Part shown: piece by piece, positions 33,088-64,000 of the stretch
Position numbering within the stretch: the stretch's first letter is position 1
Layout: each line of letters starts with the position of its first letter
Assembly (NCBI GenBank): GCA_965198005.1
Contig: CBDAOI010000004.1
Coordinates: 128,001 to 192,000 of the forward strand
Source of the DNA: Spirochaetia bacterium
GTDB taxonomy: Bacteria > Spirochaetota > Spirochaetia > SZUA-6 > Bin103
Direction: 5' to 3'
Length of the DNA: 64,000 bases
Translations under genes and position numbers: made by a program
Notes under the pieces: generated by a model
Told to the model about the DNA's origin: nothing
What the model saw: only the letters and a program-made list of their open reading frames with translations
Database searches by the model: none

Positions 33088-33981
33088 TTACGGAGCGGGC
33101 TGCGGGGCCTCCGGCTGCTGCGGTTCGTGCCGTTCGCGCGCCCAAGCGCGGGTGAGCTGCGCCAGCTCGCCGGCGGCGGTCGCGCCAACTTCCACGAATC
33201 GAGTAACCCGGCCGAAGCGGAGGTCGAGATACTCGTGCGCCAGCAGGTTGCGCAACGGCGCCAGCGGCTGCAGCCGTCCCGACAGGCTGCTAAAGGCTTC
33301 CAGGGCTTCCAGTTCGCCCAGGATTTGGCCGTAGGTATACGGAACCGGTCCCGGCGCGGCGGCCAGCACGATCTTGCCGATGTCGATCGCGGCGTTGATC
33401 AGCGTTTCCACCCAGCGGTCCAGGTTGCGGCGGAAGTCGCGATCGGAGCGATAGCGCTCCAGCGTGCCATCTCGAAATCGGGCGCGGTCCTCCAACTCGG
33501 ATTCGATGAAATCGACGATCCGTAGCAGCCGGCTGCGGTCGACGGCAGACAGCGACCGACCGCGGTCACGGATGGTGCGGTATTCGCGTTCGGTTTGGAG
33601 GAAATCGATCGCCACCGTGGTGACGGCCAGGAAGTAGCGGGTATACAGCGCCCGATCGCGCATCAGGACCACGTGTCCGCGACCTAGCGCCTCCGCACAC
33701 ACCGTCGCCGGTGCGCGATTCAGCACGAGGAGTTCGACGTTGCGCCCGGTGGCGCGCTCCAGGGCGATCTGGATCTCGGCCTCACTCTCGATCTCCCGTT
33801 CGCGCTCTACTTCGAGTGCTCCGGCCGACGCGCCGTAAACCGCGACGTCGAGGTCTGAGTCGACTCGCAGCCGGCCGGTGGCGGCTGATCCGAACAGGAC
33901 GGCGAAGACCAGTTGCGGGAAACGTTCCAGCTCCGTGCTGATCGTCGCGACGATCTCATCGGTTGCCTGCGGAGGCCCCAT
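33088..33981 (-). CDS. Fused MNT-HEPN (DUF86/HepT-like) protein
   Basis: N-terminal LFGSAATG...SDLDVAV; C-terminal RNLLAHEY (Rx4H) in one 297-aa frame. Confidence 0.82.
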   Translation of the reverse strand: MGPPQATDEIVATISTELERFPQLVFAVLFGSAATGRLRVDSDLDVAVYGASAGALEVEREREIESEAEIQIALERATGRNVELLVLNRAPATVCAEALGRGHVVLMRDRALYTRYFLAVTTVAIDFLQTEREYRTIRDRGRSLSAVDRSRLLRIVDFIESELEDRARFRDGTLERYRSDRDFRRNLDRWVETLINAAIDIGKIVLAAAPGPVPYTYGQILGELEALEAFSSLSGRLQPLAPLRNLLAHEYLDLRFGRVTRFVEVGATAAGELAQLTRAWARERHEPQQPEAPQPAP

Positions 33982-37559: not shown

Positions 37560-37869
37560 CACGGCCCCTGTAGGCCCCCACAACAAGTTAGCGCTTATGC
37601 CCCCTGTACCCTTTATAGAGATTAGATAGTTCGCCAGGGACTGCTAGAATCCCAGGCGGGCAAGGCAGCCTACCGGGAGCAACCTTGAGCCCCCCGCGCC
37701 GTAGAGCGCCCGGGGGGGACATGTGCCCCGGTAGGAGTGCCGCGATGGATACCCAGTGAGGAGTAGTGCCAGGTGGGAAGGTGCCAGGAGCACCGGAGCA
37801 CCGGAGCACCAGTACAGGGGTGGAACGACATCGTGGCAGCCGAGCTCCACAATCTCGGGAGGTGACAGG

Positions 37870-39123
37870 ATGTCAACCGAACAGACCGAACAGTGGTTCG
37901 TGGGTATCGATTGGGCGACCAGGCAACATCAGATCTGTGTGCTTGAGGGTGACGGGGAGGTGGTCGCGGAACGGCAGGTGGACCATAGCGGCGCCGGCAT
38001 CGCCGACTTGTGCGCGTGGTTGCACGAGCTATCGGGCGGGCACCCGGAGCGCGTGCACGCGGCGATCGAGATGCCGCATGGCGCGGTGGTCGAGATGCTG
38101 CTGGAGCGGGAGGTGCAGGTGTACGCGATCAATCCCAAGCAGCTGGATCGATTTCGTGACCGGTTTACGGTGGCCGGCGCCAAGGATGACCGGCGCGACG
38201 CGCGGGTGTTGGCAGACTCGCTGCGCACCGACCGCCGCAGCTTTCGTCAGTTGCAGGTGCAGGCACCGCCGGTGATCGAGTTGCGGGAATGGTCGCGCCT
38301 GACTGCCGAGTTGCAGGAGGAACGCAACGGGCTGATCAATCGCATGCGCGAGCAACTGCGCCGCTACTACCCGCAGCTGATCGAGCTGGGCGGTGACCTC
38401 GGCGCGGGCTGGGTTCTGGAGTTGTGGGAGAAGGCGCCGACGCCGGCGGAGGCAGCGCGGGTCCGGAAGGCGTCGGTCGCGGCCATCCTGAAGCGCAACC
38501 GCATCCGGCGCCACGCTGCTGCCGGTGTGCTGGGCATCCTGCGGCAGCAGCCGCTTGAGGTGGGCCGCGGGACGATAGCGGCGGCTACGGCGCACATCGC
38601 GAGCGTGATCGCCCGGCTGAAGCTGGTCGACCAGCAACTCAAACAGGCGCACAGCCGGCTCGACGAACTGCTGGCCGAGATTGTGGCCGACGACGACTCG
38701 GGTGAACCAGAAGAGCGGCGTGACGCCGTCATCCTGCGTTCGATGCCCGGTGTCGGTCGGATCGTGCTCGCCACGCTGCTGGCCGAAGCCTCACAGCCTC
38801 TGGCTGAGCGAGACTACCACAGGTTGCGGATTCTGACCGGGGTGGCGCCGGTGACCAAGCGGTCGGGGAAGAGTTGCCAGGTGAGCATGCGCCGGGCCTG
38901 CAACCAGCGGCTGAGCAACGCGATGTATCACTGGGCGCGGGTGGCGATCCAGCACGATCCGGTGAGTCGGGAGCGGTATGCGGCGCTGCGCGCGCGCGGG
39001 CAGCGCCATGGCCGGGCGCTGCGTACGGTCGCGGACCGGTTGCTCGCGGTGGCGTGCGCGATGCTGCGTGACCGCACGCAGTTTGATCCACAGCACCGGG
39101 CTCCGCGACCGCTGACCGCCTGA
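37870..39123 (+). mobile_element. IS110-family transposase/recombinase, intact ORF
   Basis: N-terminal DEDD RuvC-like motifs (GIDWA, AIE, KDDRRDA); C-terminal SMPGVG, GVAPVTKRSGK. Confidence 0.93.
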
Positions 39124-39290: not shown

Positions 39291-39578
39291 GTGGCGGTAA
39301 GTAACGCGGAACGACAACGGCGCTATCGAGAGCGCCGCAAGGCAGCGCAGCCCCGGGTGCAGTACCGCAGGCCGCAAGACCGCAGGTCCCGACCGCAGCG
39401 CTGGCAGGATGCGGTGGGCACCCTGCTCGACCTCCAGGGTGAGTATCAAGCGTGGCTCGACCACTTGCCCGACAGTCTCCAGGAGTCCGCGGTCGCACAG
39501 CGGCTGGAGGCGATGTGCGGGCTTGATCTTGCCGAACTGGAGAGCGTCGAGCCGCCGCGCGGGTATGGGCGCGAATGA
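39291..39578 (+). CDS. Small conserved-looking hypothetical protein directly downstream of IS110
   Basis: RBS aggag; SNAERQRRYRER basic helix; PPRGYGRE C-terminus. Confidence 0.65.
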   Translation: MAVSNAERQRRYRERRKAAQPRVQYRRPQDRRSRPQRWQDAVGTLLDLQGEYQAWLDHLPDSLQESAVAQRLEAMCGLDLAELESVEPPRGYGRE

Positions 39579-40021
39579 GGGGGGCTCTGCAGCCCGCACC
39601 TCGCGTCGTTCCTGACCTGCAAGCGCTGATCAGTGCCGGTCTCGGATTGATGTTCGAGGTGGCACACGGGAGCCGGGTGGCGGACCGCGCGGCGTCAGCG
39701 GTGTCAGCGGTGGTAGGAAACGGCTTTGACGGGCATTTTGCGGGATTCCGGGGGGTACTGGGTTTGGAAGGCCGTCAGGGGGCCGCTATGAGGCCGACGC
39801 GGACGCCGCCGAGCGGCGGCTGCCGGCCAATCGGCGGTGAAACGGGATCGTGGCGGCGACTCGACCGGCAGCCGCGCGGCAGGCAGCCGGCTTGGAACAG
39901 CAGCCCGACGACCGCACGCGGCGGGGCCTTCGATTGCTGGTCCAGGTGAGAGCCGGGGTGAGCGGTGTCGGCACGGCTTTGACGGGCATTTTGCGGGATT
40001 CCGGGGGGTACCCTGGGGTAT

Positions 40022-41937
40022 GAGCGCCAGGCTAACTGGCATATGACAGAGGGTGAAAGTCCCTCGGAACGAAGGAGCAGCCAATCCACGTTTCTCCGCG
40101 AGCCGTGCGTTGGCACCTGCGAGGGTGCAGGCGAAGCGTCGGCAGCGGTGCGTGCGGGCAGAGTTATGGAGCGCCGCAAAATACGACATCTGGAGTGCCG
40201 AGACTCTGTACTCGGTCGAAGGCAACACCGGTCGAGCCAGTATGGTGAGGATCGACCGGGCTCCACGGCGTCGAAGAACTCAGGCACGTACGTACGTCAT
40301 ATACCGGGACCTGGGAGGTCTTCGGGTCGTCCCGGCGAGTCGTCGCCGGGACCGCGGAGGGAAGGCGTGAGGCTGGACCAAAGATGAACGACCCGAAGGA
40401 GTCGGACATGGGCATAGTAGCGGCGAAGCCGGCGAACAAGGGAGCGCAAGCGACTGCGGAGACGGTGGAGCGAAGGCCCATGACCAACGGGAATTCGCAA
40501 GGTCAAAGCACGGGCCGGACGCAGAGTCGGGCAACCGTGACACAGGCGGCCGAGCGGATACGGCAATTCGTAAAGAGAGAACCGCAGGAGAAACTCACTG
40601 CGCTGCTGCACCACGTGACGCCGGAAGCGCTGCGGGTGGCCTATTACGCGCTGAAGCGTGAAGCGGCCCCGGGGGTGGACGGGATGACGTGGCGGGAGTA
40701 CGAGACGGGGTTGGAAGTGCGCTTGCACGACCTGCACCGGCGAGTACACACAGGAGCGTACCGAGCGACCCCGGTACGGCGGGTCAACATCGACAAGCCG
40801 GACGGAGGCACACGACCGCTGGGGGTGGCCGCGCTGGAGGACAAGATCGTCCAGAAGGCCGTGGTGGATGTGATCCTGACACCGATCTATGAGGAGGAAT
40901 TTCTCGGGATCAGCTATGGGTTTCGACCGGGGCGCGGGGCACACGATGCGTTGGACGCACTGGCCTACGCCATCGAACGGCGCAAAGTGAACTGGATATT
41001 GGACGCGGACATTCGCGGCTACTTCGATTCGATCTCGCGGGACTGGTTGATCAGATTCCTGGAGCATCGGATTGGAGATCGGCGGGTGCTGCGGCTGATA
41101 AAGAAGTGGCTGCGCGCTGGGGTACTGGAAGAAGGCCGACAGATCGACGCGGGGCGGGGTACAGCGCAAGGGTCGGTGATTTCACCGATGCTCGCGAATA
41201 TATACTTGCACTACGTGTTGGACCTGTGGGTCACCAAGAAGTGGCGGCCGCAGGAGGCGCGCGGAGACATGATCATAGTGCGCTACGCAGATGACTATGT
41301 CGCCGGGTTCGAGCATCGTGACGATGCGGAACGCTTCCTGCGGGAACTGAAGGAGCGATTCAGAGGCTTCGAGCTGGAACTGAACGCCGACAAGACCCGA
41401 CTCCTCGAGTTTGGACGGTATGCCGAAAGGAACCGCCGAGCACGTGGGGAAGGGCGACCGGAGACGTTCGACTTTCTGGGTTTCACGCATTATTGCAGGA
41501 AGGACAGGAAAGGACGCTTCGGGCTGGGGCGGAAGCCAATTCGGAAGCGGATGAATCGTACGCTGAAGAGGATCAAGATCGAGCTCCGCAGACGAATGCA
41601 TGATGACGTGATGGAAACCGGGCGCTGGCTGGGACGGGTACTGCGCGGATGGCTCAACTACTACGCGGTACCCACCAGCTACCGCTATCTGCACCGATTC
41701 GTGTGGCGTCTGCGAGGAATCTGGGTAAAGATTCTACGCCGGAGGTCCCAGAAGGACCGATTCTCCTGGGCTTGGATGCTGGCGATCAGCATCAAGCTGT
41801 GGCCCCAACCCCGAATCGTACACTCATGGCCGGACCGGCGATTTGCCGTCAACCACCGAAGGTAGGAGCCGGATGGTTTAACGACCACGTCCGGATCTGT
41901 GCGGGGGGCGCCGGGTAACCGGCGTTCCTACCGCGCC
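40022..41937 (+). mobile_element. Group II intron, copy 1 (1,916 nt; resembles bacterial class E)
   Basis: RT ORF followed by domain V (gagccggatg...cacgtccggatc) and domain VI; ends defined by the empty site at 44541/44542. Confidence 0.92.
40384..41865 (+). CDS. ltrA: Group II intron reverse transcriptase/maturase, no endonuclease domain
   Basis: APGVDG, KPDGGTRPLG, SYGFRPGR, LDADI, QGSVISPMLANIYLH, RYADD, FDFLGFT, LRGWLNYY. Confidence 0.95.
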   Translation: MNDPKESDMGIVAAKPANKGAQATAETVERRPMTNGNSQGQSTGRTQSRATVTQAAERIRQFVKREPQEKLTALLHHVTPEALRVAYYALKREAAPGVDGMTWREYETGLEVRLHDLHRRVHTGAYRATPVRRVNIDKPDGGTRPLGVAALEDKIVQKAVVDVILTPIYEEEFLGISYGFRPGRGAHDALDALAYAIERRKVNWILDADIRGYFDSISRDWLIRFLEHRIGDRRVLRLIKKWLRAGVLEEGRQIDAGRGTAQGSVISPMLANIYLHYVLDLWVTKKWRPQEARGDMIIVRYADDYVAGFEHRDDAERFLRELKERFRGFELELNADKTRLLEFGRYAERNRRARGEGRPETFDFLGFTHYCRKDRKGRFGLGRKPIRKRMNRTLKRIKIELRRRMHDDVMETGRWLGRVLRGWLNYYAVPTSYRYLHRFVWRLRGIWVKILRRRSQKDRFSWAWMLAISIKLWPQPRIVHSWPDRRFAVNHRR

Positions 41938-42286
41938 CTCCCTGGGTTTGGAAGGCCGTCAGGGGGCCGCTATGAGGCCGACGCGGACGCCGAGCGGCCC
42001 GCTGCCGGCCAATCGGCGGTGAATGCCGGCCCTGAACGGGTCCGAGTGCCGGGATCGTCGGCGTAGCGGCGCGCATGCTGGCGCGCGGGCGGCGAACTCG
42101 ACCGGCAGCCGCGCGGCAGGCAGCCGGCTTGGAACAGCAACCCGACGACCGCACGCGGCGGGGCCTTCGATTGCTGGTCCAGGTGGGAGCCGGGGTGGCG
42201 GACCGCGCGGCGTCAGCGGTGTCAGCGGTGGTGGGAAACGGCTTTGACGGGCACTTTGCGGGATTCCGGGGGGTACCCTGGGGTAT

Positions 42287-44202
42287 GAGCGCCAGGCTAA
42301 CTGGCATATGACAGAGGGTGAAAGTCCCTCGGAACGAAGGAGCAGCCAATCCACGTTTCTCCGCGAGCCGTGCGTTGGCACCTGCGAGGGTGCAGGCGAA
42401 GCGTCGGCAGCGGTGCGTGCGGGCAGAGTTATGGAGCGCCGCAAAATACGACATCTGGAGTGCCGAGACTCTGTACTCGGTCGAAGGCAACACCGGTCGA
42501 GCCAGTATGGTGAGGATCGACCGGGCTCCACGGCGTCGAAGAACTCAGGCACGTACGTACGTCATATACCGGGACCTGGGAGGTCTTCGGGTCGTCCCGG
42601 CGAGTCGTCGCCGGGACCGCGGAGGGAAGGCGTGAGGCTGGACCAAAGATGAACGACCCGAAGGAGTCGGACATGGGCATAGTAGCGGCGAAGCCGGCGA
42701 ACAAGGGAGCGCAAGCGACTGCGGAGACGGTGGAGCGAAGGCCCATGACCAACGGGAATTCGCAAGGTCAAAGCACGGGCCGGACGCAGAGTCGGGCAAC
42801 CGTGACACAGGCGGCCGAGCGGATACGGCAATTCGTAAAGAGAGAACCGCAGGAGAAACTCACTGCGCTGCTGCACCACGTGACGCCGGAAGCGCTGCGG
42901 GTGGCCTATTACGCGCTGAAGCGTGAAGCGGCCCCGGGGGTGGACGGGATGACGTGGCGGGAGTACGAGACGGGGTTGGAAGTGCGCTTGCACGACCTGC
43001 ACCGGCGAGTACACACAGGAGCGTACCGAGCGACCCCGGTACGGCGGGTCAACATCGACAAGCCGGACGGAGGCACACGACCGCTGGGGGTGGCCGCGCT
43101 GGAGGACAAGATCGTCCAGAAGGCCGTGGTGGATGTGATCCTGACACCGATCTATGAGGAGGAATTTCTCGGGATCAGCTATGGGTTTCGACCGGGGCGC
43201 GGGGCACACGATGCGTTGGACGCACTGGCCTACGCCATCGAACGGCGCAAAGTGAACTGGATATTGGACGCGGACATTCGCGCCTACTTCGATTCGATCT
43301 CGCGGGACTGGTTGATCAGATTCCTGGAGCATCGGATTGGAGATCGGCGGGTGCTGCGGCTGATAAAGAAGTGGCTGCGCGCTGGGGTACTGGAAGAAGG
43401 CCGACAGATCGACGCGGGGCGGGGTACAGCGCAAGGGTCGGTGATTTCACCGATGCTCGCGAATATATACTTGCACTACGTGTTGGACCTGTGGGTCACC
43501 AAGAAGTGGCGGCCGCAGGAGGCGCGCGGAGACATGATCATAGTGCGCTACGCAGATGACTATGTCGCCGGGTTTGAATACCGGGACGATGCGGAACGCT
43601 TCCTGCGGGAACTGAAGGAGCGATTCAGAGGCTTCGAGCTGGAACTGAACGCCGACAAGACCCGACTCCTCGAGTTTGGACGGTATGCCGAAAGGAACCG
43701 CCGAGCACGTGGGGAAGGGCGACCGGAGACGTTCGACTTTCTGGGTTTCACGCATTATTGCAGGAAGGACAGGAAAGGACGCTTCGGGCTGGGGCGGAAG
43801 CCAATTCGGAAGCGGATGAATCGTACGCTGAAGAGGATCAAGATCGAGCTCCGCAGACGCATGCATGATGACGTGATGGAAACCGGGCGCTGGCTGGGAC
43901 GGGTACTGCGCGGATGGCTCAACTACTACGCGGTACCCACCAGCTACCGCTACCTGCACCGATTCGTGTGGCGTCTGCGAGGAATCTGGGTAAAGATTCT
44001 ACGCCGGAGGTCCCAGAAGGACCGATTCTCCTGGGCTTGGATGCTGGCGATCAGCATCAAGCTGTGGCCCCAACCCCGAATCGTACACTCATGGCCGGAC
44101 CGGCGATTTGCCGTCAACCACCGAAGGTAGGAGCCGGATGGTTTAACGACCACGTCCGGATCTGTGCGGGGGGCGCCGGGTAACCGGCGTTCCTACCGCG
44201 CC
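42287..44202 (+). mobile_element. Group II intron, copy 2
   Basis: Near-identical to copy 1, offset 2,265 bp. Confidence 0.92.
42649..44130 (+). CDS. ltrA: Group II intron reverse transcriptase/maturase
   Basis: 493 aa; two visible substitutions versus copy 1. Confidence 0.95.
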   Translation: MNDPKESDMGIVAAKPANKGAQATAETVERRPMTNGNSQGQSTGRTQSRATVTQAAERIRQFVKREPQEKLTALLHHVTPEALRVAYYALKREAAPGVDGMTWREYETGLEVRLHDLHRRVHTGAYRATPVRRVNIDKPDGGTRPLGVAALEDKIVQKAVVDVILTPIYEEEFLGISYGFRPGRGAHDALDALAYAIERRKVNWILDADIRAYFDSISRDWLIRFLEHRIGDRRVLRLIKKWLRAGVLEEGRQIDAGRGTAQGSVISPMLANIYLHYVLDLWVTKKWRPQEARGDMIIVRYADDYVAGFEYRDDAERFLRELKERFRGFELELNADKTRLLEFGRYAERNRRARGEGRPETFDFLGFTHYCRKDRKGRFGLGRKPIRKRMNRTLKRIKIELRRRMHDDVMETGRWLGRVLRGWLNYYAVPTSYRYLHRFVWRLRGIWVKILRRRSQKDRFSWAWMLAISIKLWPQPRIVHSWPDRRFAVNHRR

Positions 44203-45269
44203 CTCCCTGGGTTTGGAAGGCCGTCAGGGGGCCGCTATGAGGCCGCGAGCGGCCCGCTGCCGGCCAATCGGCCGTGAATGCCGGCCCTGAACGGGTCCGA
44301 GTGCCGGGATCGTCGGCGTAGCGGCGCGCATGCTGGCGCGCGGGCGGCGAACTCGACCGGCAGCCGCGCGGCAGGCAGCCGGCTTGGAACAGCAACCCGA
44401 CGACCGCACGCGGCGGGGCCTTCGATTGCTGGTCCAGGTGGGAGCCGGGGTGGCGGACCGGGCGGCGTCAGCGGTGTCAGCGGTGGTGGGAAACGGCTTT
44501 GACGGGCATTTTGCGGGATTCCGGGGGGTGCCCTGGGGTATCTCCCTGGGTTTGGAAGGCCGTCAGGGGGCCGCCATGAGGCCGACTCGGACGCCGAGCG
44601 GCCCGCTGCCGGCCAATCGGCCGTGAATGCCGGCCCTGGAGGGGTCCGAGTGCCGAGATCGTCGCCGCGGCGGCGCTCGTGCTGCCGCTCCTGTCCGAGC
44701 AGCCTCGAGCGCCGCGATGGCCGCAGCAACGGCCCATTCCCCCCGCGTGCGGCGACTGACGGAGCAGCGGCTCGACGTTCAAGGAGGTCTGCCGTCGTTA
44801 GCTGTCCTGGAGGTGGCTGCGACCCGACCAGGCTGGGCTGCGGGCGGTGGCGGCGCGGTCAATACGGAGCCAGCGGTGCCGGGAATCGGCGTTGACGGGT
44901 GTTGCCGGGGGTGCCCCAGGCTACCCCCGAGGGGCTGGAAGGCCCTCAGGGGGCCGCTATGAGGCCGCGAGCGGTCCGTTGCCGGCCAATCGGCGGTGAA
45001 TGCCGGCCCTGAACGGGTCCGAGTGCCGGGATCGTCGGCGTAGCGGCGCGCATGCTGCCGCGCGGTCGGCGAACTCGACCGGCAGCGGTGCGGCAGGCAG
45101 AGGCAGCCGGCTTGGAACAGCAACCCGACGACCGCACGCGGCGGGGCCTTCGATTGCTGGTCCAGGTGGGAGTCGGGGTGGCGGACCGCGCGGCGTCAGC
45201 GGTGTCAGCGGTGGTGGGAAACGGCTTTGACGGGCACTTTGCGGGATTCCGGGGGGTACCCTGGGGTAT

Positions 45270-47185
45270 GAGCGCCAGGCTAACTGGCATATGACAGAGG
45301 GTGAAAGTCCCTCGGAACGAAGGAGCAGCCAATCCACGTTTCTCCGCGAGCCGTGCGTTGGCACCTGCGAGGGTGCAGGCGAAGCGTCGGCAGCGGTGCG
45401 TGCGGGCAGAGTTATGGAGCGCCGCAAAATACGACATCTGGAGTGCCGAGATTCTGTACTCGGTCGAAGGCAACACCGGTCGAGCCAGTATGGTGAGGAC
45501 CGACCGGGCTCCACGGCGTCGAAGAACTCAGGCACGTACGTACGTCATATACCGGGACCTGGGAGGTCTTCGGGTCGTCCCGGCGGGTCGTCGCCGGGAC
45601 CGCGGAGGGAAGGCGTGAGGCTGGACCGAAGATGAACGACCCGAAGAAGTCGGACATGGGCATAGTAGCGGCGAAGCCGGCGAACAAGGGAGCGCAAGCG
45701 ACTGCGGAGACGGTGGAGCGAAGGCCCATGACCAACGGGAATTCGCAAGGTCAAAGCACGGGCCGGACGCAGAGTCGGGCAACCGTGACACAGGCGGCCG
45801 AGCGGATACGGCAATTCGTAAAGAGAGAACCGCAGGAGAAACTCACTGCGCTGCTGCACCACGTGACGCCGGAAGCGCTGCAGGTGGCCTATTACGCGCT
45901 GAAGCGCGAAGCGGCCCCGGGGGTGGACGGGATGACGTGGCGGGAGTACGAGACGGGGTTGGAAGTGCGCTTGCACGACCTGCACCGGCGAGTACACACA
46001 GGAGCGTACCGAGCGACCCCGGTACGGCGGGTCAACATCGACAAGCCGGACGGAGGCACACGACCGCTGGGGGTGGCCGCGCTGGAGGACAAGATCGTCC
46101 AGAAGGCCGTGGTGGATGTGATCCTGACACCGATCTATGAGGAGGAATTTCTCGGGATCAGCTATGGGTTTCGACCGGGGCGAGGGGCACACGATGCGTT
46201 GGACGCACTGGCCTACGCCATCGAACGGCGCAAAGTGAACTGGATATTGGACGCGGACATCCGGGCCTACTTCGATTCGATCTCGCGGGACTGGTTGATC
46301 AGATTCCTGGAGCATCGGATTGGAGATCGGCGGGTACTGCGGCTGATAAAGAAGTGGCTGCGCGCTGGGGTACTGGAAGAAGGCCGACAGATCGACGCGG
46401 GGCGGGGTACAGCGCAAGGGTCGGTGATTTCACCGATGCTCGCGAATATCTATCTGCACTACGTGTTGGACCTGTGGGTCACCAAGAAGTGGCGGCCGCA
46501 GGAGGCGCGCGGAGACATGATCATAGTGCGCTACGCAGATGACTACGTTGCCGGGTTTGAATACCGGGACGATGCGGAACGCTTCCTGCGGGAACTGAAG
46601 GAGCGATTCAGAGACTTCGAGCTGGAACTGAACGCCGACAAGACCCGACTCCTCGAGTTTGGACGGTATGCCGAAAGGAACCGCCGAGCACGTGGGGAAG
46701 GGCGACCGGAGACGTTCGACTTTCTGGGCTTCACGCATTATTGCAGGAAGGACAGGAAAGGACGCTTCGGGCTGGGGCGGAAGCCAATTCGGAAGCGGAT
46801 GAATCGTACCCTGAAGAGGATCAAGATCGAGCTCCGCAGACGCATGCATGATGACGTGATGGAAACCGGGCGCTGGCTGGGACGGGTACTGCGCGGATGG
46901 CTCAACTACTACGCGGTACCCACCAGCTACCGCTACCTGCACCGATTCGTGTGGCGTCTGCGAGGAATCTGGGTAAAGATTCTACGCCGGAGGTCCCAGA
47001 AGGACCGATTCTCCTGGGCTTGGATGCTGGCGATCAGCATCAAGCTGTGGCCCCAACCCCGAATCGTACACTCATGGCCGGACCGGCGATTTGCCGTCAA
47101 CCACCGAAGGTAGGAGCCGGATGGTTTAACGACCACGTCCGGATCTGTGCGGGGGGCGCCGGGTAACCGGCGTTCCTACCGCGCC
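45270..47185 (+). mobile_element. Group II intron, copy 3
   Basis: Near-identical to copy 1, offset 5,248 bp. Confidence 0.92.
45632..47113 (+). CDS. ltrA: Group II intron reverse transcriptase/maturase
   Basis: 493 aa, YADD intact. Confidence 0.95.
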   Translation: MNDPKKSDMGIVAAKPANKGAQATAETVERRPMTNGNSQGQSTGRTQSRATVTQAAERIRQFVKREPQEKLTALLHHVTPEALQVAYYALKREAAPGVDGMTWREYETGLEVRLHDLHRRVHTGAYRATPVRRVNIDKPDGGTRPLGVAALEDKIVQKAVVDVILTPIYEEEFLGISYGFRPGRGAHDALDALAYAIERRKVNWILDADIRAYFDSISRDWLIRFLEHRIGDRRVLRLIKKWLRAGVLEEGRQIDAGRGTAQGSVISPMLANIYLHYVLDLWVTKKWRPQEARGDMIIVRYADDYVAGFEYRDDAERFLRELKERFRDFELELNADKTRLLEFGRYAERNRRARGEGRPETFDFLGFTHYCRKDRKGRFGLGRKPIRKRMNRTLKRIKIELRRRMHDDVMETGRWLGRVLRGWLNYYAVPTSYRYLHRFVWRLRGIWVKILRRRSQKDRFSWAWMLAISIKLWPQPRIVHSWPDRRFAVNHRR

Positions 47186-47394
47186 CTCCCCGGGTTTGGA
47201 AGGCCGTCAGGGGGCCGCTATGAGGCCGACTCGGACGCCGAGCGCCCCGCCGCCGGCCAATCGGCCGTGAATGCCGGCCCTGAACGGGTCCGAGTGCCGA
47301 GATCGTCGCCGCGGCGGCGCTCGTGCTGCCGCTTCTGTCCGAGCAGCCTCGAACTCAACCGGCGAGCGGCTCGCGGTTGCACCTCCGGAGCGCC

Positions 47395-47997
47395 GCGACG
47401 GCCAAGCCGGAGGGTCACACCAGCCTGTACCAGGATATCGACGGGCTGCGCCGCGGTCGGCTGCTGGACCACCGCTGCACCATCGACGCGACCGGGGACC
47501 GGCATGAATACGAGTGGGTTACCGGGGTGCCGCTGAACGGCAACCCCCGCAGTCCCAAGATCAACTTCGTGCACTACCGCATCGTACGTGCGGGCACGCC
47601 CACCTATCAAAACGCCTGGGTGACCGACTTGGTGCCCAGCGCTGGCAGCGTGGCGCGGATCGTGCGTGCGGGACGAGCACGCTGGAAGATCGAGAACGAG
47701 GGGTCGATACGCTGAAGCGCTGAAGCGCTGAAGAACCAGGGCTATCACCTGGAGCACAACTTCGGCCACGGTGACAAGTACTTGTCGGAGGCGTTCTTCG
47801 TGCCGGGCCTGCTGGCCTGTTTCATGCACCGGATATTCGAGCTGGTGGACGGTCTGTATCAGCAGGTGCGGGCTGGGTTCGGGTCGCGCCGGGAGTTCTG
47901 GGGCGCGATTCGCGCCACGTTCCGGCTATTCCTGTTCCGGTCGTGGGACCAGGTGCTGGTGCGGATGAATTCGCCGCCGCAGCCGCTGTCCGGGTAG
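47395..47997 (+). pseudogene. C-terminal fragment of a DDE transposase (ISNCY-like), frameshifted
   Basis: AWVTDL...GRARWKIENEG...LKNQGYHLEHNFGHG. Confidence 0.75.
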
Positions 47998-48241
47998 CCG
48001 CTCCCTGGGGAACTGAACCTGCTCCCTGAACGATCCCTGACTGGGGCTGCGGCGCAGGTGTGCCGGCGGCGCGCGGGCAACCGGCCCCGAAGGGCCGATC
48101 GCCGCACCGCGCCAGCCCGCGGCATCGGCCGAGCGGCGGTGGCTGACGGTGGTCAGGTCATCGCACGGGGCTGCATGACGGTGGCTAAATACGTCACCTG
48201 CAATCAGTTACAGAATTTCTGCCGGGTCGGGCCGTGGGTGC

Positions 48242-48535
48242 ATTCACTCGGTGGGCCAACAGGTGGGCATGGTCGCGTTTCACACTCGGAGGGCTTGAGC
48301 TTATGACAGGGCTTGCGATCTCGCCCTCGAAACTTTTCTGTAACCTTTCGGCGCCCAATGTTGCCATATCTGTTTACGATGCACCTCTGCCCCCCGTTCT
48401 CCGAGAATCGCTGTCGCGCCGTGCGGGTGCTTGCCTCCCACGGGAAGAATGGGTATATTGAAGTCGTGTATTCACTTGGTGGGCCAACAGGTGGGCATGG
48501 TCGCGTTTCACACTCGGAGGGCTTGAGCTTATGAC
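48242..48535. repeat. 66-bp direct repeat pair (48242-48307, 48470-48535), also at 62212-62277 and 62440-62505
   Basis: attcact(c/t)ggtgggccaacaggtgggcatggtcgcgtttcacactcggagggcttgagcttatgac. Confidence 0.9.
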
Positions 48536-48917
48536 CCTCTGCCCCTCTACCAGCGGTTCCCCGAGAATCGCTGCTGTTTGCCTGTTGACTTGTTTGCCGC
48601 AGGCGTGCCATACTAAAAGCCTCGGGTTTGAACGGATGCAAAAGATGGGTGATAACACTACTCAGCACTGCCACCGGTTAGCGGCAACGCAGCCGGCGCG
48701 TCCTATCCTCGCCTACCCCCCCCCCCCCCCCCCCCCCCCCCCCGGCGGGAGCTCCAAGAATTCGTTTCGCGGGGGTTGAAAAATGGTGAGGAGTCCCCCG
48801 CGTGGCGTTGTGACGCAGGTCCCGACGTCCGCCGAGCGGTGGGCGTTTGCATGATGGGGCGCGCACGCGGGTCCCATCTTACGTCAGCCATCCGGCAGGG
48901 CACCCTGTGCCCCAAGA

Positions 48918-49082
48918 AGGAGGTGAAGATGATACTGAAAGAACCGCACGCGCGCGCGGCGTGAGCCCGGGTGAACCCGGTGAGTCACACGCCGCGCGCT
49001 TGAGGAATCTGACTCAGACTGGCCGTCCGCGTTGCGGGCGCGAGAGTAGCCAGGGAGCGGCAGGCCGCTACGCAATACTCTC
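48918..49082 (+). promoter_or_regulatory. Leader class I, copy B: RBS, MILKEPHARAA short ORF (48929..48964) and structured RNA
   Basis: Three homologous copies, each directly 5' of a binding-protein gene or its remnant. Confidence 0.72.
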
Positions 49083-49091
49083 AAGATCAAA

Positions 49092-50906
49092 ATGATGGAC
49101 AAAACAATGAAAATCTTATTTAGAATGACCTTCGCGGTCGCGTTGGTCATGGTGCTGACCGCAACCGGCCTCTGGGCCGGCGCTGCCAGCGAAGAGGAGC
49201 CGGCGGCCGCCGCCGACAAGAAGTATGTAACCGACCCCACTACCGGCAAGGTGGTGAGCGCGCCAGAGTATGGCGGGACACTCACCTATGCCAAGATCGG
49301 CATGCCAACTTCGAGTACTGACGCTTGGACCGATGGTGGCGTTGTGGGATATCTCTTCCTCAGTCACACTCTAGAGAAGCTAGCCATCGGGAACTGGGCG
49401 ATAGATCGAGAAGAACATGGCTGGAATACAACGGCCGTACCTCTATGGAGCTTAAATGGGGCGCTGGCGGAAAGTTGGGAGATTTCCCCAGATGGACTCA
49501 CCTATACCTTCAAAATCCGACAGGGCGTCTACTGGCATGATAAGGCACCGATGAACGGTCGGGAGCTAACTGCCGATGATATCGTATATAACTATCACCG
49601 TTATTTGGGTCTGGGCAGTGGCTTCACCGAACCTAGCCCCCATTTTGGGGGTCTCGTCGTTCTGCCATTCGAATCGATAACGGCCACCGACAAATATACG
49701 GTTGTCATGAAGCTGGAGGAGCCACGCCTCTTTGCGATGGGTGATATCGTCGACTACTATATGGGTTATATGTATCCCCCGGAGGTAATCAAGGAACACG
49801 GAGACGCTAAGGACTGGAGGAACTTGGTCGGCACCGGGCCCTATATGATAACTGACTTGGTCAAGGGCAGCTCGGTGACCTATACCAAGAATCCTGACTA
49901 CTGGGGCTACGACGAAAAATACCCGGAGAACCGCCTGCCCTATATTGACCAGTTAGAGTTCCTGGTTATGCCAGAGGAGGCGACACGCCTGGCGGCACTG
50001 CGCGCGGGTACGCTTGATGTCATGGGTCGCAACGGCAACGCTTCAATACAGTCTATCGACGTACTAGAGAGTCTCCAGCGGACCAACCCCGAAATCGTGT
50101 TGTGGAAGTTTCCTTGGCGGTCGGATACTTCTTTTCATCTTAACGTGAGTAAGCCGCCCTTTGACGACATCAATGTGCGCAGGGCAATGCAGATGGCACT
50201 AGACCTTGGGACAATTAACGCTACCTACTGGAAGGGTTATGGATCTACCAGACCTCAGGGGACAGTTGCCGATGATGCGAAAGGGTGGGTCCTCCCATTT
50301 GAAGAGTGGCCGGAAGCGGTCAAGAAAGTCCATACCTATGACCCGACAGGTGCAGAAGCGTTGCTTGATGCGGCTGGATATAGACGTGGCGCCGACGGCA
50401 CTAGATTCAAGACCCTGGTCAACGTCTATGAGGCGCACGATGCGACCTTTGCAGAACTAGCCGCTGCATACTGGGGTGACATTGGCGTTGATGTCGAGAT
50501 TCAGATAACTCCAGGAGCTGAGTTTGTCGCCGCGAAAAAGGGCGGACTTTATGAAATGCTCTCTGGGACAACAGCCATCAGGGTGAGTGCTCCGTCACCA
50601 AACCAATATTGGTCGGGCAATCCACATAACCCTTCCTATGTCAAGGATCCGAATTATGACGCCATGTACGACGCCTGGCAGGAAGCTGACACTATTGAGG
50701 AGGCGCAGAGGTGGATGAAAGAGGCAAATATGTACGTGGAAGAAAGGCACTGGAGCCTATGGGGTGGCGAACTCCCACAGTGGAACGTGAGCCAGCCGTG
50801 GGTCATGGGTTATAACGGTGAAGTCTGGTTGGGAATGGGTCAACAAGATAACTTCTTCGCCCGCCTCTGGATTGATAGTGAGCTGAAGGAAGCAATGGGT
50901 CATTAG
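49092..50906 (+). CDS. ABC transporter family-5 solute-binding protein, intact
   Basis: Family motifs as above; exact start among nearby ATGs uncertain. Confidence 0.93.
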   Translation: MMDKTMKILFRMTFAVALVMVLTATGLWAGAASEEEPAAAADKKYVTDPTTGKVVSAPEYGGTLTYAKIGMPTSSTDAWTDGGVVGYLFLSHTLEKLAIGNWAIDREEHGWNTTAVPLWSLNGALAESWEISPDGLTYTFKIRQGVYWHDKAPMNGRELTADDIVYNYHRYLGLGSGFTEPSPHFGGLVVLPFESITATDKYTVVMKLEEPRLFAMGDIVDYYMGYMYPPEVIKEHGDAKDWRNLVGTGPYMITDLVKGSSVTYTKNPDYWGYDEKYPENRLPYIDQLEFLVMPEEATRLAALRAGTLDVMGRNGNASIQSIDVLESLQRTNPEIVLWKFPWRSDTSFHLNVSKPPFDDINVRRAMQMALDLGTINATYWKGYGSTRPQGTVADDAKGWVLPFEEWPEAVKKVHTYDPTGAEALLDAAGYRRGADGTRFKTLVNVYEAHDATFAELAAAYWGDIGVDVEIQITPGAEFVAAKKGGLYEMLSGTTAIRVSAPSPNQYWSGNPHNPSYVKDPNYDAMYDAWQEADTIEEAQRWMKEANMYVEERHWSLWGGELPQWNVSQPWVMGYNGEVWLGMGQQDNFFARLWIDSELKEAMGH

Positions 50907-57000: not shown

Positions 57001-57982
57001 ATGAGAGCGTACGTCATCCGGCGCGTCCTGCTGCTGATCCCGACCGTCTTCTTGCTGACGATTCTGGTGTTCCTCTCGGTGCGGTTCATACCGGGCGATG
57101 CCGTCGACCTCCTCATCTTTAGGATGACGAGAGCATCGGGCGGTATGGGCACCTTCGACCGGGCGGAGCTCGAGCGCCGGCTGGGGCTGGATGTGCCGGT
57201 CCACGTGCAGTACGGCCGCTGGATGGGCGGCATCCTGCTGCACGGCAACCTGGGCACGCCGCTGCTGCGGCCCGAGCCGGTCGGCCAGCTGATCGCCGGC
57301 AGGCTGCCGACCACCATGGAGCTGGGCCTGGTGGCGCTGTTCGTGGGGGTGCTGATCGGGGTGCCGATCGGCATCTACTCGGCGGTGCGGCAGGACACCC
57401 TGGGCGACTACGTGGGTCGTTCCTTCGCCATCCTCGGGCTGGCCACCCCCAACTTCTGGCTCGCCACCATCATCCTGGTCGTTCCGGCGATCTGGTGGGG
57501 TTGGTCGCCGCCGCTACGCTTGGTGCGCCTGAGCGACGACCCGGTACGCCACTTCGCCATCTTCATCGTGCCGGGTCTGATCCTCGGCACCTATCTGGCG
57601 GCCAGTATCATGCGCATGACCCGCACCATGATGCTGGAGGTGCTCCGGCAGGACTACATTCGCACTGCCTGGGCCAAGGGCCTGCGCGAGCGCGTGGTCA
57701 TTCTCCGCCACGTCATCCGGACGTGCCGAGCTGGGGCACGATGCTGAGCCGCGAGGGGCGGCAGTACATGGAGATGGCGCCGCGGCTGGCGATGTGTGGC
57801 CGGGTGTCGCCCTGACCATCGTCGTCTACTGCCTGAACATGGTGGGCGACGCGCTGCGCGACCTGCTGGACCCGCGGCTGCGCGGCGGCGGCGGGGTGGC
57901 CGGCGGGGTAGGCGCCCGCGCCGCCGAGCGCGCCACGAAGGCCCTGCAGAAGCTGGAACGCAAAGAACGGCCGTCCAACTAG
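57001..57982 (+). pseudogene. 3'-truncated dppB fused to the dppC 3' end
   Basis: DppB up to ILRHV, then PSWGTMLSREGR...GDALRDLLDPR. Confidence 0.85.
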
Positions 57983-59406: not shown

Positions 59407-60371
59407 ATGAGAGCGTATTTGATTCGGCGTCTGCTGCTGACCATTCCGACGCTCACCATCCTGTCGATGCTGGTCTTCCTGTCGGTCCGTTTCATACCCG
59501 GCGACATCGTCGACGTACTGATGCAGGAGATGATGCTCAGCGGTGCCATCCAGGACGTGGATCGCGAGGCGGTCGAGCGCAGGCTGGGGCTCGATCAGCC
59601 CATCCACGTCCAGTATGGGCGCTGGGTGGGCGACATCCTGCTGCGCGGCAGTCTGGGGCGATCCCTGCTGCACAACTGGGAAGTGGGCGAGCGGATTCTC
59701 GGACGCATGCCGGTGACCTTCGAACTGGGGTTGCTCGCCATCGTCATCGGCCTGGTTATCGCCATGCCGGTGGGCATCTTCTCCGCGATTCGGCAGGACC
59801 GCGTCGGCGACTACGTCGGACGTTCGGTCGCTATCATCGGCCTGGCGACGCCCAACTTCTGGCTGGGCGTGATGGTGATGATCTACCCGGCGATCTGGTG
59901 GGGCTGGACGCCGCCGCTCAAGCTGGTCCCCTTCTTCGAGGACCCGCTGCGGAATCTGGGGGGCTTCCTCATCCCCGCCCTCATTCTGGGCACGGCCGGC
60001 GCCGCGGCCATCATGCGCATGACCCGCACCATGATGCTGGAAGTGCTCAGGCAGGACTCTACATCCGCACCGCGTGGTCGAAGGGAGTACGCGAGCGCGT
60101 CGTGGTGGTGAGGCACGCCCTCAAGAACGCACTGATCCCCGTCGTTACGTTGGTTGGTCTGCAGCTGCCGATTCTCGTCGGTGGCGCGGTCATCATGGAG
60201 AACATCTTCAACCTGCCCGGGCTCGGCCGGCTGATGCTGCTCGCTCTGCAAGATCGTGATTACACGGTGGTGTCGGGAGTGAATCTGCTGTTCGGGACGG
60301 TGGTCCTGTTGAACAACCTGTTCATCGACATGGTCTACGGCTTGCTGGACCCGAGGATACGGTACCGGTAA
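59407..60371 (+). pseudogene. DppB-family permease, frameshifted near 60058
   Basis: ORFs 59407..60111 and 59898..60371; caggactctacatc shows a 2-nt insertion. Confidence 0.88.
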
Positions 60372-60386
60372 TGGCGGGACGGCGCA

Positions 60387-61166
60387 CCGGCTTGTCGATG
60401 TTGACCCGCCGTACCGGGGTCGCTCGGTACGCTCCTGTGTGTACTCGCCGGTGCAGGTCGTGCAAACGCACTTCCAACCCCGTCTCGTACTCCCGCCACG
60501 TCATCCCGTCCACCCCCGGGGCCGCTTCACGCTTCAGCGCGTAATAGGCCACCCGCAGCGCTTCCGGCGTCACGTGGTGCAGCAGCGCAGTGAGTTTCTC
60601 CTGCGGTTCTCTCTTTACGAATTGCCGTGTCCGCTCGGCCGCCTGTGTCACGGTTGCCCGACTCTGCGTCCGGCCCGTGCTTTGGCCTTGCGAATTCCCG
60701 TTGGTCATGGGCCTTCGCTCCACCGTCTCCGCAGTCGCTTGCGCTCCCTTGTTCGCCGGCTTCGCCGCTACTATGCCCATGTCCGACTCCTTCGGGTCGT
60801 TCATCTTCGGTCCAGCCTCACGCCTTCCCTCCGCGGTCCCGGCGACGACTCGCCGGGACGACCCGAAGACCTCCCAGGTCCCGGTATATGACGTACGTAC
60901 GTGCCTGAGTTCTTCGACGCCGTGGAGCCCGGTCGATCCTCACCATACTGGCTCGACCGGTGTTGCCTTCGACCGAGTACAGAATCTCGGCACTCCAGAT
61001 GTCGTATTTTGCGGCGCTCCATAACTCTGCCCGCACGCACCGCTGCCGACGCTTCGCCTGCACCCTCGCAGGTGCCAACGCACGGCTCGCGGAGAAACGT
61101 GGATTGGCTGCTCCTTCGTTCCAAGGGACTTTCACCCTCTGTCATATGCCAGTTAGCCTGGCGCTC
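60387..61166 (-). mobile_element. Group II intron copy 4, inverted and 3'-truncated (5' 780 nt)
   Basis: Reverse complement of 40022-~40801; RT ends after NIDKP. Confidence 0.92.
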
Positions 61167-61380
61167 GTACCCCAGGGCTACCCCCGAGGGGCTGGAAGGC
61201 CCTCAGGGGGCCGCTATGAGGCCGCGAGCGGTCCGTTGCCGGCCAATCGGCGGTGAATGCCGGCCCTGAACGGGTCCGAGTGCCGAGATCGTCGCCGCGG
61301 CGGCGCTCGTGCTGCCGCTTCTGTCCGAGCAGCCTCGAACTCAACCGGCGAGCGGCTCGCGGTTGCACCTCCGGAGCGCC

Positions 61381-61967
61381 GCGACGGCCAAGCCGGAGGG
61401 TCACACCAGCCTGTACCAGGATATCGACGGGCTGCGCCGCGGTCGGCTGCTGGACCACCGCTGCACCATCGACGCGACCGGGGACCGGCATGAATACGAG
61501 TGGGTTACCGGGGTGCCGCTGAACAGCAAGCCCCGCAGTCCCCAGATCAACTTCGTGCACTACCGCATCGTACGGGCCGGCACGACCACCTATCAAAACG
61601 CCTGGGTGACCGACTTGGTGCCCACCGCTGGCAGCGTCGCGCGGATCGTGCGTGCGGGACGAGCACGCTGGAAGATCGAGAACGAGGGGTCGATACGCTG
61701 AAGAACCAGGGCTATCACCTGGAGCACAACTTCGGCCACGGTGACAAGTACTTGTCGGAGGCGTTCTTCGTGCCGGGCCTGCTGGCCTGTTTCATGCACC
61801 GGATATTCGAGCTGGTGGACGGTCTGTATCAGCAGGTGCGGGCTGGGTTCGGGTCGCGCCGGGAGTTCTGGGGCGCGATTCGCGCCACGTTCCGGCTATT
61901 CCTGTTCCGGTCGTGGGACCAGGTGCTGGTGCGGATGAATTCGCCGCCGCAGCCGCTGTCCGGGTAG
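61381..61967 (+). pseudogene. Second copy of the ISNCY-like transposase fragment
   Basis: Part of the 1.5-kb duplication. Confidence 0.75.
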
Positions 61968-63116
61968 CCGCTCCCTGGGGAACTGAACCTGCTCCCTGAA
62001 CGATCCCTGACTGGGGCTGCGGCGCAGGTGTGCCGGCCGCGCGCGGGCAACCGGCCCCGAAGGGCCGATCGCCGCACCGCGCCAGCCCGCGGCATCGGCC
62101 GAGCGGCGGTGGCTGACGGTGGTCAGGTCATCGCACGGGGCTGCATGACGGTGGCTAAATACGTCACCTGCAATCAGTTACAGAATTTCTCCCGGGTCGG
62201 GCCGTGGGTGCATTCACTCGGTGGGCCAACAGGTGGGCATGGTCGCGTTTCACACTCGGAGGGCTTGAGCTTATGACAGGGCTTGCGATCTCGCCCTCGA
62301 AACTTTTCTGTAACCTTTCGGCGCCCAATGTTGCCATATCTGTTTACGATGCACCTCTGCCCCCCGTTCTCCGAGAATCGCTGTCGCGCCGTGCGGGTGC
62401 TTGCCTCCCACGGGAAGAATGGGTATATTGAAGTCGTGTATTCACTCGGTGGGCCAACAGGTGGGCATGGTCGCGTTTCACACTCGGAGGGCTTGAGCTT
62501 ATGACCCTCTGCCCCTCTACCAGCGGTTCCCCGAGAATCGCTGCTGTTTGCCTGTTGACTTGTTTGCCGCAGGGGTGCCATACTAAAAGCCTCGGGTTTG
62601 AACGGATGCAGAAGATGGGTGATAACACTACTCAGCACTGCCACCGGTTAGCGGCAACGCAGCCGGCGCGTCCTATCCTCGCCTACCCCCCCCGACGGGA
62701 GCTCCAAGAATTCGTTTCGCGGGGGTTGAAAAATGGTGAGGAGTCCCCCCCCCCCCCCCCCCCCGCAGCTTTTTCGGACCGATAAGCAACTAACCGCTCC
62801 GGCTGCTCGCCCTTTACGCGACCCCGCGCGCGCCGTCGCCTTCACCACCGCAGTAGCTCGCACTGTCGGTCGCGCCGGCTCGGTCCCGCGCCGAACCGAC
62901 CTGCGGGCCGCCCGCGCCCTTCCCGGCGACCGCAACCGTCCCGGCTTCCCGCCCGCGACTCCCCCGGTCGGCGTCTGCATGATCGGGCGCCCACGCGCTG
63001 CACGCGCTGTGCGCTGCGCACCCCAGCTTACGACTATTTCCGGCCCGAGACAGGCGGCCTGCATCAGGCATCTGACAGGGCCGCCTGTGGCCCAAGATCG
63101 CAAGATCAAGCTAACC

Positions 63117-63283
63117 AGGAGGTGCACATGATACTCAAGGAACCTTAGGCGCGCGCGGCGTGAGCCGGGGCGAACCCGCTGAGTCACACGCCGCGCGCTT
63201 TTGGTGAATCCGACTCGAACTGGCAGCCTGTGTTGCGGGCCCGAGAGTAGCCAGGGAGCGGCAATCCGCTGCGCAATACTCTC
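63117..63283 (+). promoter_or_regulatory. Leader class I, copy C: RBS, MILKEP short ORF (63128..63148) and structured RNA
   Basis: Homologous to copies A and B. Confidence 0.72.
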
Positions 63284-63308
63284 GAAAAATCTACATACGG
63301 AGAAACGT

Positions 63309-64000
63309 ATGAATATTACAAAAACGGGAATGACCTTCGCGATTGCGTTGGTCCTGGTCATGACCACAACCGGCCTGTGGGCCACTGGCGCGGAAGAGAC
63401 GCCGGCAGCCGCGGCCGACAAGCAGTACGTCACCGACCCCACAACCGGCAAGGTGGTGACTGCGCCGGAGTACGGCGGGACAATAACCTACGTCATGAAA
63501 GAAGAGCCTTCGCATGTCGACGCTCCGTTAGATTTGCACGGCCAAGCGATCGCCAAGCTGGTTGTAGAGTGGCTAGCCCTCCCCGACTGGGCAGCGCCCA
63601 GGGACGAATTGGACTTCGTGAACTGGGATCCTCCAAACTACACGAGGGGGTCTCTGGCGGAAAGCTGGGAAATGCCCGACGACACAACGATTGTCTTCAA
63701 CATCCGCAAGGGCGTTTACTGGCATGATAAGGCACCGATGAACGGTCGGGAGCTGACTGCCGATGATGTCGAATATAACTGGCACCGTGTGACGGGTACG
63801 GGCAGCGGCTACACCGAAATGAGCGAATTTGCTTGGTCTTTGAGGGCTTTGTCATTCGAATCGATAACGGCCACTGACAAATATACGGTTGTTTTCAAGC
63901 TGAAGGAGCCAAATCTCGTGACGCTGGGTGCTATCATGTCCGAGGGCATTACCCTTATATACCCCCCCGAGGTAATCAAGGAACACGGGGGCGTTACGGA
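63309..64000 (+). CDS. ABC transporter family-5 solute-binding protein, 5' part, runs off the window
   Basis: Manual translation from ATG 63309: MNITKTGMTFAIALVLVMTTTGLWATGAEE...PEYGGTI...LAESWE. Confidence 0.9.
   Translation, partial: MNITKTGMTFAIALVLVMTTTGLWATGAEETPAAAADKQYVTDPTTGKVVTAPEYGGTITYVMKEEPSHVDAPLDLHGQAIAKLVVEWLALPDWAAPRDELDFVNWDPPNYTRGSLAESWEMPDDTTIVFNIRKGVYWHDKAPMNGRELTADDVEYNWHRVTGTGSGYTEMSEFAWSLRALSFESITATDKYTVVFKLKEPNLVTLGAIMSEGITLIYPPEVIKEHGGVT

Follow-up and report, generated by a model that had tools for sequence, protein, structure and literature searches.

Can a group II intron lose the conserved letters at both of its ends and still move? The consensus of these introns, GUGYG at the 5' end and AY at the 3' end, is a consensus and not an absolute requirement. 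The question is raised by a 64,000-nt stretch of the genome of a Spirochaetia bacterium (assembly GCA_965198005.1, contig CBDAOI010000004.1, positions 128,001 to 192,000 of the forward strand; hereafter, the window), in which three 1,916-nt introns begin with GAGCG and end with GCC. We find that mobility with non-consensus ends is the right reading, that the change at the 3' end is a young polymorphism with a precedent, and that the change at the 5' end is an old trait of one side of the reverse transcriptase (RT) tree. The element, which we call the GAGCG intron, is very probably an autonomous and recently active group II intron with a IIB-like ribozyme, an RT that lacks the endonuclease (En) domain, and the ends GAGCG and GCC (GAC in a minority of copies). 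These results suggest that end letters regarded as invariant can be replaced without stopping the spread of the element.

The three complete copies lie on the plus strand, in direct orientation, at 40022-41937, 42287-44202 and 45270-47185, and their ends are given by an unoccupied target site in the same window and by a sister copy elsewhere in the genome. The unoccupied site, read directly at 44531-44550 (plus strand), is ccctggggtat/ctccctggg (a slash marks the junction), and the three occupied sites read ccctggggtat/GAGCGCCAGG...CCTACCGCGCC/ctccc. Because the letters at the junctions differ (t/G and C/c, as against t/c in the empty site), the 1,916-nt unit cannot slide. At the sister copy, inserted in a unique site (L013, at C3:964601; C3 and C4 are contigs of the assembly), a contig from a public run, X1, joins place 1499 to place 3416 and so leaves out 1,916 nt exactly (slack of 1 nt); the depth of this contig is similar to that of the flanks, and the skip fixes the same ends whether it represents an empty DNA allele or ligated exons. 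The length and boundaries put forward by an earlier sequence-only reading of the window are thus borne out. So are its statements that the RT open reading frames (ORFs) of the window are intact (40384-41865, 42649-44130 and 45632-47113) and that a partial fourth copy shares the deviant 5' end: this copy (60387-61166, minus strand), a 5' fragment cut down to 780 nt by 3' truncation (intron nt 1-780), starts with GAGCG after ...gccctggggtac. A degenerate target, ggggggtac/tgggtttgg, is found at 39750-39770 (plus strand); compared with the empty site, it lacks 15 nt (cctggggtatctccc).

The ribozyme, domains V and VI, the RT, the pairing of exon-binding site 1 (EBS1) with intron-binding site 1 (IBS1) and the precise insertion show that the GAGCG element is a mobile-type, RT-encoding group II intron. 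Modelling of its domains, which the sequence-only reading had proposed as a check, recovered domains I to IV, V and VI by Rfam alignment or by folding. The domain I core up to the start of domain IV, at 40056-40280 (plus strand) in the first copy, matches the Rfam model RF02005 (group-II-D1D4-6) with 169.5 bits against a gathering score of 49, over model positions 1-225 of 225; the model is matched over its full length by all four copies in the window, with 164-170 bits for the three full ones. The ORF of the first copy (40384-41865, plus strand) encodes a 493-aa RT/maturase, which scores 351.2 bits (cut-off 300) with TIGR04416, the NCBIfam equivalog for group II RT/maturases. Its sole Pfam match is RVT_1 (E 4e-35), which leaves the endonuclease domain undetected; among solved structures, the nearest chains are the IIC RTs 7uim and 6ar1. 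Domain V (41866-41897, plus strand) carries the AGC triad and a 2-nt bulge and folds as a hairpin with this bulge, although its match to RF00029, the model for domains V and VI, is of 31.2 bits (E 0.0011), under the gathering score of 40. The loop of domain V has 4 nt in the fold, and several relatives read as having a loop of 5 nt. In domain VI (41899-41937, plus strand), placed by the fold and by the RF00029 alignment, the A at 41930 is bulged and a tail of 7 nt, CCGCGCC, follows it; in the fold, this A is thus separated from the 3' end by the canonical distance, 7 nt. The ribozyme is compact, with about 430 nt outside the ORF, and its secondary structure is IIB-like.

In the assembly, which comprises 4.89 Mb in four contigs and is 90% complete, the intron is present in 15 full-length copies and in many fragments. 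All of the 22 junctions that bear the intron's 5' end start with GAGCG, none conforming to GUGYG, and the 5' exon ends in GGGTAT at 11 of them, in GGGTAC at 8 and in GGGTGC at 3. EBS1, GUACUC, occupies a terminal loop at 40208-40213 (plus strand), which is the variable loop of a conserved stem in the RF02005 alignment; the stem that it closes is located just before GAAGGCAACAC. The sequence-only reading had paired this loop with GGGTAT and GGGTAC, and the pairing holds throughout the genome, with 6/6 positions in Watson-Crick or G-U pairs at 22/22 junctions; for a random hexamer of contig C4 the chance of a 6/6 pairing is 0.0016. The first letter of the 3' exon is C at all 18 junctions with a 3' end. 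The ends of the intron are exact, and a 6-bp EBS1-IBS1 helix between GUACUC and GGGUAY or GGGUGC selects the 5' exon. The main target is supplied by a GC-rich host repeat of about 350 nt, which is arranged in tandem at 39575-47400 of the window and dispersed elsewhere (64 BLAST segments on all four contigs), and which has no match in Rfam at the gathering threshold. Its unit boundary, CCCTGGG-GTAT/CT-CCCTGGG, is the main target of the intron, and a variant of the repeat read inversely is the second target type; one unit, with the target site at its boundary, spans 41938-42286 (repeat families D1, D2 and D6). Empty sites of the two types number 12 in the genome.

Several lines of evidence indicate that the GAGCG intron has moved. 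Thirteen of the 15 full copies have an intact 493-aa ORF. Three of the copies, located at different loci, have the same sequence, and another is 1 nt away from it. The upstream flanks fall into 11 distinct contexts, which include the boundary of the host repeat, the inverse complement of the repeat variant and repeat-free sites (C3:964601, C4:1797493, C3:813795 and C4:582942). Further insertion sites are revealed by loose contig ends in other public runs, and in one of these, ...GGGAGUAC/GAGCG, the exon is a perfect Watson-Crick match to EBS1. Moreover, the sense strand of the intron lies on the strand of positive local GC skew (G-rich) in 15/15 full copies. In contrast, 4 of the empty sites have this favoured orientation and the other 8 are reversed (Fisher p = 2.2e-4 against the occupied sites, a value that overstates the independence of the data, the copies being kin and the replichores inferred from skew); several of the reversed empty sites have an occupied one at a distance of a few hundred bases. 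Of the earlier proposal that the lineage probably splices and moves, it is the moving that is borne out, by the 15 near-identical copies, the unique sites, the empty allele and the strand bias. The same features, together with the identity of copies, lead us to infer that the intron would be excised as a lariat through the bulged A at 41930 and would reverse-splice into single-stranded DNA at the replication fork, where copying could be primed by the nascent lagging strand, as shown for RmInt1 of Sinorhizobium meliloti. Both splicing steps, and reverse splicing too, would then tolerate the A at position 2 of the intron (A2) and the penultimate C, and the 15/15 strand bias provides a further natural example of fork-dependent retrohoming. 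The minus-strand copies in the unfavourable skew are all truncated at the 3' end (C4:274100-275190, nt 1-1091; C4:188387-189166, nt 1-780, the fragment at 60387-61166 of the window; and C3:142372-142499, nt 1-128), whereas incomplete reverse transcription would be expected to leave copies truncated at the 5' end.

A number of points weigh against this picture of a splicing, mobile intron. In addition to the low RF00029 score and to the kinship of the copies noted above, the replichores are assigned from GC skew in an assembly of four contigs that is 90% complete, and some copies lie where the local skew is slight (0.0065 to 0.009). The patterns of variants among kin copies are mosaic, a sign of gene conversion, and some of the spread could have taken place at the DNA level. 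The library kind of run X1 is unknown, and its 1,916-nt skip may represent an empty DNA allele and not spliced RNA. No ligated-exon or branch joint was seen in the assembled contigs of three RNA-library runs; the depth of the intron exceeds that of its flanks in the RNA-library runs X10, X11 and X13, but it does likewise in X1, with a similar ratio of intron to flank, and DNA carry-over is possible. Finally, for EBS2 no C/U-rich partner was found for the conserved G-run upstream of IBS1 (about -13 to -19). A candidate EBS2, the variable unpaired stretch AAAAUACGACAU (about 40184-40195), was rejected: it gives a plausible pairing, with -9 to -13, in L036, L037 and L040, but none with the G-run at the sites of the GAGCG intron.

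As for the 3' end, the sequence-only reading had the complete copies share both deviations, which is so in the window and fails genome-wide: 12 of the 15 full copies end in GCC, at variance with the AY consensus, and 3 end in GAC (over all 18 of the 3' junctions, 14 GCC, 3 GAC and 1 GAA). Of the AC copies, two keep an intact ORF and are only 4 positions away from the commonest haplotype, and the remaining one is divergent and carries a frameshift. CC is present on divergent haplotypes too, and the matrix of variants is mosaic, which implies that gene conversion or recurrent change was involved. The penultimate letter is A in the outgroup, a 77%-identical intron in a genome of the same family, and in 5/5 of the 3' ends of the GAGCG intron family in the 40 related genomes searched; the penultimate C is therefore the derived state. 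Within the genome, AC and CC are scattered over haplotypes and reveal no order of events, and only the A of the outgroup is firm. Most simply, the penultimate C would be a young change, found in just one genome among those searched and coexisting there with the ancestral A. Since RmInt1 has already been published with a CC end, that of the GAGCG intron adds an independent instance, the second, to an oddity already on record. The change at the 3' end is not coupled to that at the 5' end, as A2 occurs in relatives with AA or AY-like 3' ends. Among these relatives, the GAA ends of the Dehalococcoidia copies were rejected as last letters, because they could equally be read as GAAY with an 8-nt tail, the next letter being T or C.

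The letters at the ends need not be neutral, however, and a rather unlikely but still substantial alternative is that they favour excised lariats or circles at the expense of exon ligation, making of the GAGCG intron a pure retroelement that silences its host repeat. RmInt1 ends in CC and is followed by CC in the exon, and changes at its 3' splice site alter the efficiency of the second step and the ratio of circles to lariats (PMC4238363). The corresponding junctions of the GAGCG intron read GCGCC/CUCCC and GCGCC/CCCCU. The fold allows the penultimate C to join a G that lies 5' of domain VI, by which the basal helix gains a G-C pair; the ancestral A cannot do this, and CC is the state of the majority (12/15), including the identical, most recent copies. 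Set against this is the observation that a C-to-A change in RmInt1 gave near wild-type kinetics (PMC4238363). Moreover, AC and CC copies with intact ORFs coexist on closely related haplotypes, which fits near-neutrality.

The 5' end was followed in relatives of the RT drawn from species-representative genomes, plasmids and the 40 related genomes; the 5' ends of their introns were aligned to the GAGCG intron and then checked against each intron's own EBS1 loop. An automated EBS1 finder, run on 23 loci, gave 21 results, 10 of them with the wrong stem or loop (L077, L078, L085, L072, L050, L055, L057, L037, L033 and L075); the misplaced loops were re-read by hand from the alignments and L085 was dropped as ambiguous, leaving 22 intron types. 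The EBS1 loop and the IBS1 exon covary in the relatives, which confirms the 5' sites. Eight types start with GUGCG, including an ORF-less relative in the genome under study (described below) and introns of S. meliloti, A. ferrooxidans and Burkholderia plasmids, and 14 are non-canonical, starting with GAGCG, GAACGG, GAACAG, GCGCG, (G)AAAGCG, GAAGCG or GAUAGCG, although the starts of the (G)AAAGCG/GAAGCG/GAUAGCG group are uncertain by one letter. GAGCG itself is found in the genome under study, in a genome of the same genus, in a metagenome-assembled genome of Dehalococcoidia, where the intron is multi-copy with at least three flank contexts, and on a Skermanella plasmid. In an RT tree of 19 rows, which has a midpoint root only and whose types are kin, so that counts are not independent events, the GAGCG intron, its same-family relative and five Dehalococcoidia rows form a clade (support 100/100), to which the Skermanella plasmid row is sister (94/94). 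All eight rows on this side start with GA (GAGCG, GAACGG or GAACAG); the rows on the other side start with GUGCG (seven), GAAAGCG (three) or GAUAGCG (one). The GA end is retained across multi-copy RTs of only 60-66% identity. The nearest rhizobial relatives of the RT are 58% identical over all 493 aa, and they belong to an intron other than RmInt1. Collecting homologous RTs and aligning their intron ends, as the sequence-only reading had advised, therefore extends the GA start to other phyla, and GA cannot be regarded as a peculiarity of the copies in the window.

A2 would accordingly be old, being common to every row on the GAGCG side. We advance, as a reading to which we would give slightly less than even weight, that there is an old, multi-phylum clade of mobile introns with A in place of U at position 2 (GAGCG, GAACGG, GAACAG), and a second group of the (G)AAAGCG type, with members still multiplying. 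If so, a natural lineage would be able to branch, to ligate its exons and to reverse-splice without the 5' GU that group II introns share with spliceosomal introns; whatever contact U2 usually makes would be rewired or not needed, and one genome would additionally have accepted C for the penultimate A. In the alignment of relatives, no compensating column of J2/3 or J1/2 (the gamma-gamma' contact and the partner of position 2) was found to change with the last letter or with U2/A2. The pairing of G1-A2-G3 with a CUC at nt 258-260 in the minimum-free-energy fold was rejected as a compensation, since it is also present in a GUGCG relative. The same genome carries an ORF-less relative of 646 nt (C3:29295-29940, minus strand), about 82% identical, with the ends GUGCG...GAC and an EBS1, UGCUGC, that faces the exon GCAGUG; it retains domains I-III, the first ~180 nt of the ORF region and domains V-VI. 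Canonical ends in close homologues, combined with copies that do not splice, were what the sequence-only reading had expected to speak against it; such a homologue does exist, yet the GA copies have moved. In public runs X1, X10 and X11, a joint from 2045 to 3317 on L013 marks a shortened and abundant form of the GAGCG intron, which has 12-13 nt in place of nt 545-1817. The full-length RT could possibly act in trans to mobilise ORF-less mini-introns of these two kinds. Another intron family, with canonical ends (GUGCGCCGGUCAAA...CCUACUCCGAA), is found in another genome of the same family (G020; loci L081, L093 and L103) in head-to-tail pairs, the 3' end of one copy abutting the 5' GUGCG of the next.

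We consider it very improbable that the copies are dead relics, disabled by their odd ends and multiplied at the DNA level along with the host repeat. Three copies do lie within a tandem array of this repeat, most insertions are in copies of the one repeat family, and the mosaic variants point to recombination among copies. But the ORF is intact in 13/15 copies, the insertions at unique sites have no repeat in their flanks and a suitable IBS1 in every case, one unique site also exists as an allele that lacks precisely the 1,916 nt, and the host repeat exists both occupied and empty. Neither is the strict strand bias of the occupied sites expected from DNA duplication, and the GA end is kept across the multi-copy RTs described above. 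Still less credible is the possibility that the boundaries are mis-set and that canonical sites such as GUAUG, GUACG or GUGCG straddle the 5' junction (-4 to +1), as exons ending in GUGC, which give GUGCG/AGCG, and the shifted 5' splice sites known in C.te.I1 and in fungal rRNA introns (PMC4424553) might suggest, for the empty sites retain gtat or gtac and lack exactly 1,916 nt, positions -1 to -3 vary from site to site as exons do (tat, tac, tgc), the EBS1 pairing stops exactly at the proposed 5' site and the proposed 3' end comes 7 nt after the bulged A.

Other features of the window surround the intron array. An IS110-family transposase gene (DEDD_Tnp_IS110 and Transposase_20; 37756-39123, plus strand) lies directly upstream of the repeats and introns, and the Skermanella GAGCG intron likewise adjoins an IS110-family transposase. 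A segment of about 2.6 kb, which extends from the host repeat to within an SBP_bac_5 solute-binding gene, is present twice at a distance of 14 kb (47186-49750 and 61181-63935), with pieces that are 84-100% identical; the window has four sets of SBP_bac_5 and ABC permease genes, some of them truncated (57001-57747 and 59407-60111). Further away, an ORF on the minus strand (33088-33981) has Polbeta/NTP_transf_2 and HepT-like domains fused in frame and resembles an MNT-HEPN toxin-antitoxin pair.

The end letters matter because they serve as an argument for the common descent of group II and spliceosomal (GU-AG) introns, and a natural GA/CC lineage offers ready-made functional variants with which to probe U2 and the penultimate A in the second step and in reverse splicing. 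Boundary finders that seek GUGYG and AY will mis-annotate the GA clade. Boundary prediction is in fact described as poor for classes E and F and for unclassified introns (PMC4028801), and a boundary-finding tool failed on some new varieties in the work of Toro and Martinez-Abarca (PMC3552965). A contact with G1 has been ascribed to the penultimate letter, and the last letter forms a pair with J2/3 (PMC3669008; PMC6224600); on the structural role of U2, the excerpts of the literature searched yielded nothing usable. No description of a group II intron starting with GA was found in the full-text literature, although the variant may still be known, the curated intron database and published boundary logos lying outside the search.

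How does the GAGCG intron compare with systems already described? By its published description, RmInt1 (class D, or IIB3) is similar in that its RT lacks the En domain, it reaches a high copy number and it homes into a repeated element. The protein of RmInt1, with 419 aa, is shorter than the 493-aa RT. Both introns have a CC end followed by C's in the exon, with C at exon position +1 (IBS3) (PMC4238363; PMC5894124). Endonuclease-less introns such as RmInt1 insert into the DNA strand that templates lagging-strand synthesis, a mechanism that the strand bias of the GAGCG intron matches (PMC5894124). RmInt2, for its part, targets both inverted repeats of ISRm17 (PMC5894124), much as the GAGCG intron targets a repeat and the inverse of its variant; the empty sites of unfavourable orientation close to occupied ones bring this to mind as well. 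RmInt1 differs, however, in that it is described with a consensus 5' end, its authors singling out only the 3' end as deviant (PMC4238363). Classes E, F and g1-g4 are also alike by description, being compact (the GAGCG ribozyme has ~430 nt), En-less, IIB-like and dominated by EBS1; for IIE and IIF, the account gives a ribozyme of 450-700 nt, IIB-like and without En, with EBS1 as the main determinant and a domain V loop of 5 nt (PMC3753933), a length also read in several relatives of the GAGCG intron, whose own loop folds with 4 nt. The IIE and IIF introns tested have canonical GUGYG and AY sites, from which the GAGCG intron deviates; a tie between its S. meliloti relative and the class E intron S.me.I4 could not be established. 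The altered splice sites treated in section 15 of a review are displaced sites only, those of fungal rRNA IIB1 introns, of C.te.I1 and of class B introns with a 'domain VII' (PMC4424553). In these, the site is displaced relative to a GUGYG or AY that is retained, whereas in the GAGCG intron the site is in its normal place and the letters differ. Circularly permuted group II RNAs, which use GGGCG and NU (PMC8637638), likewise do without U at position 2, but they are not mobile introns.

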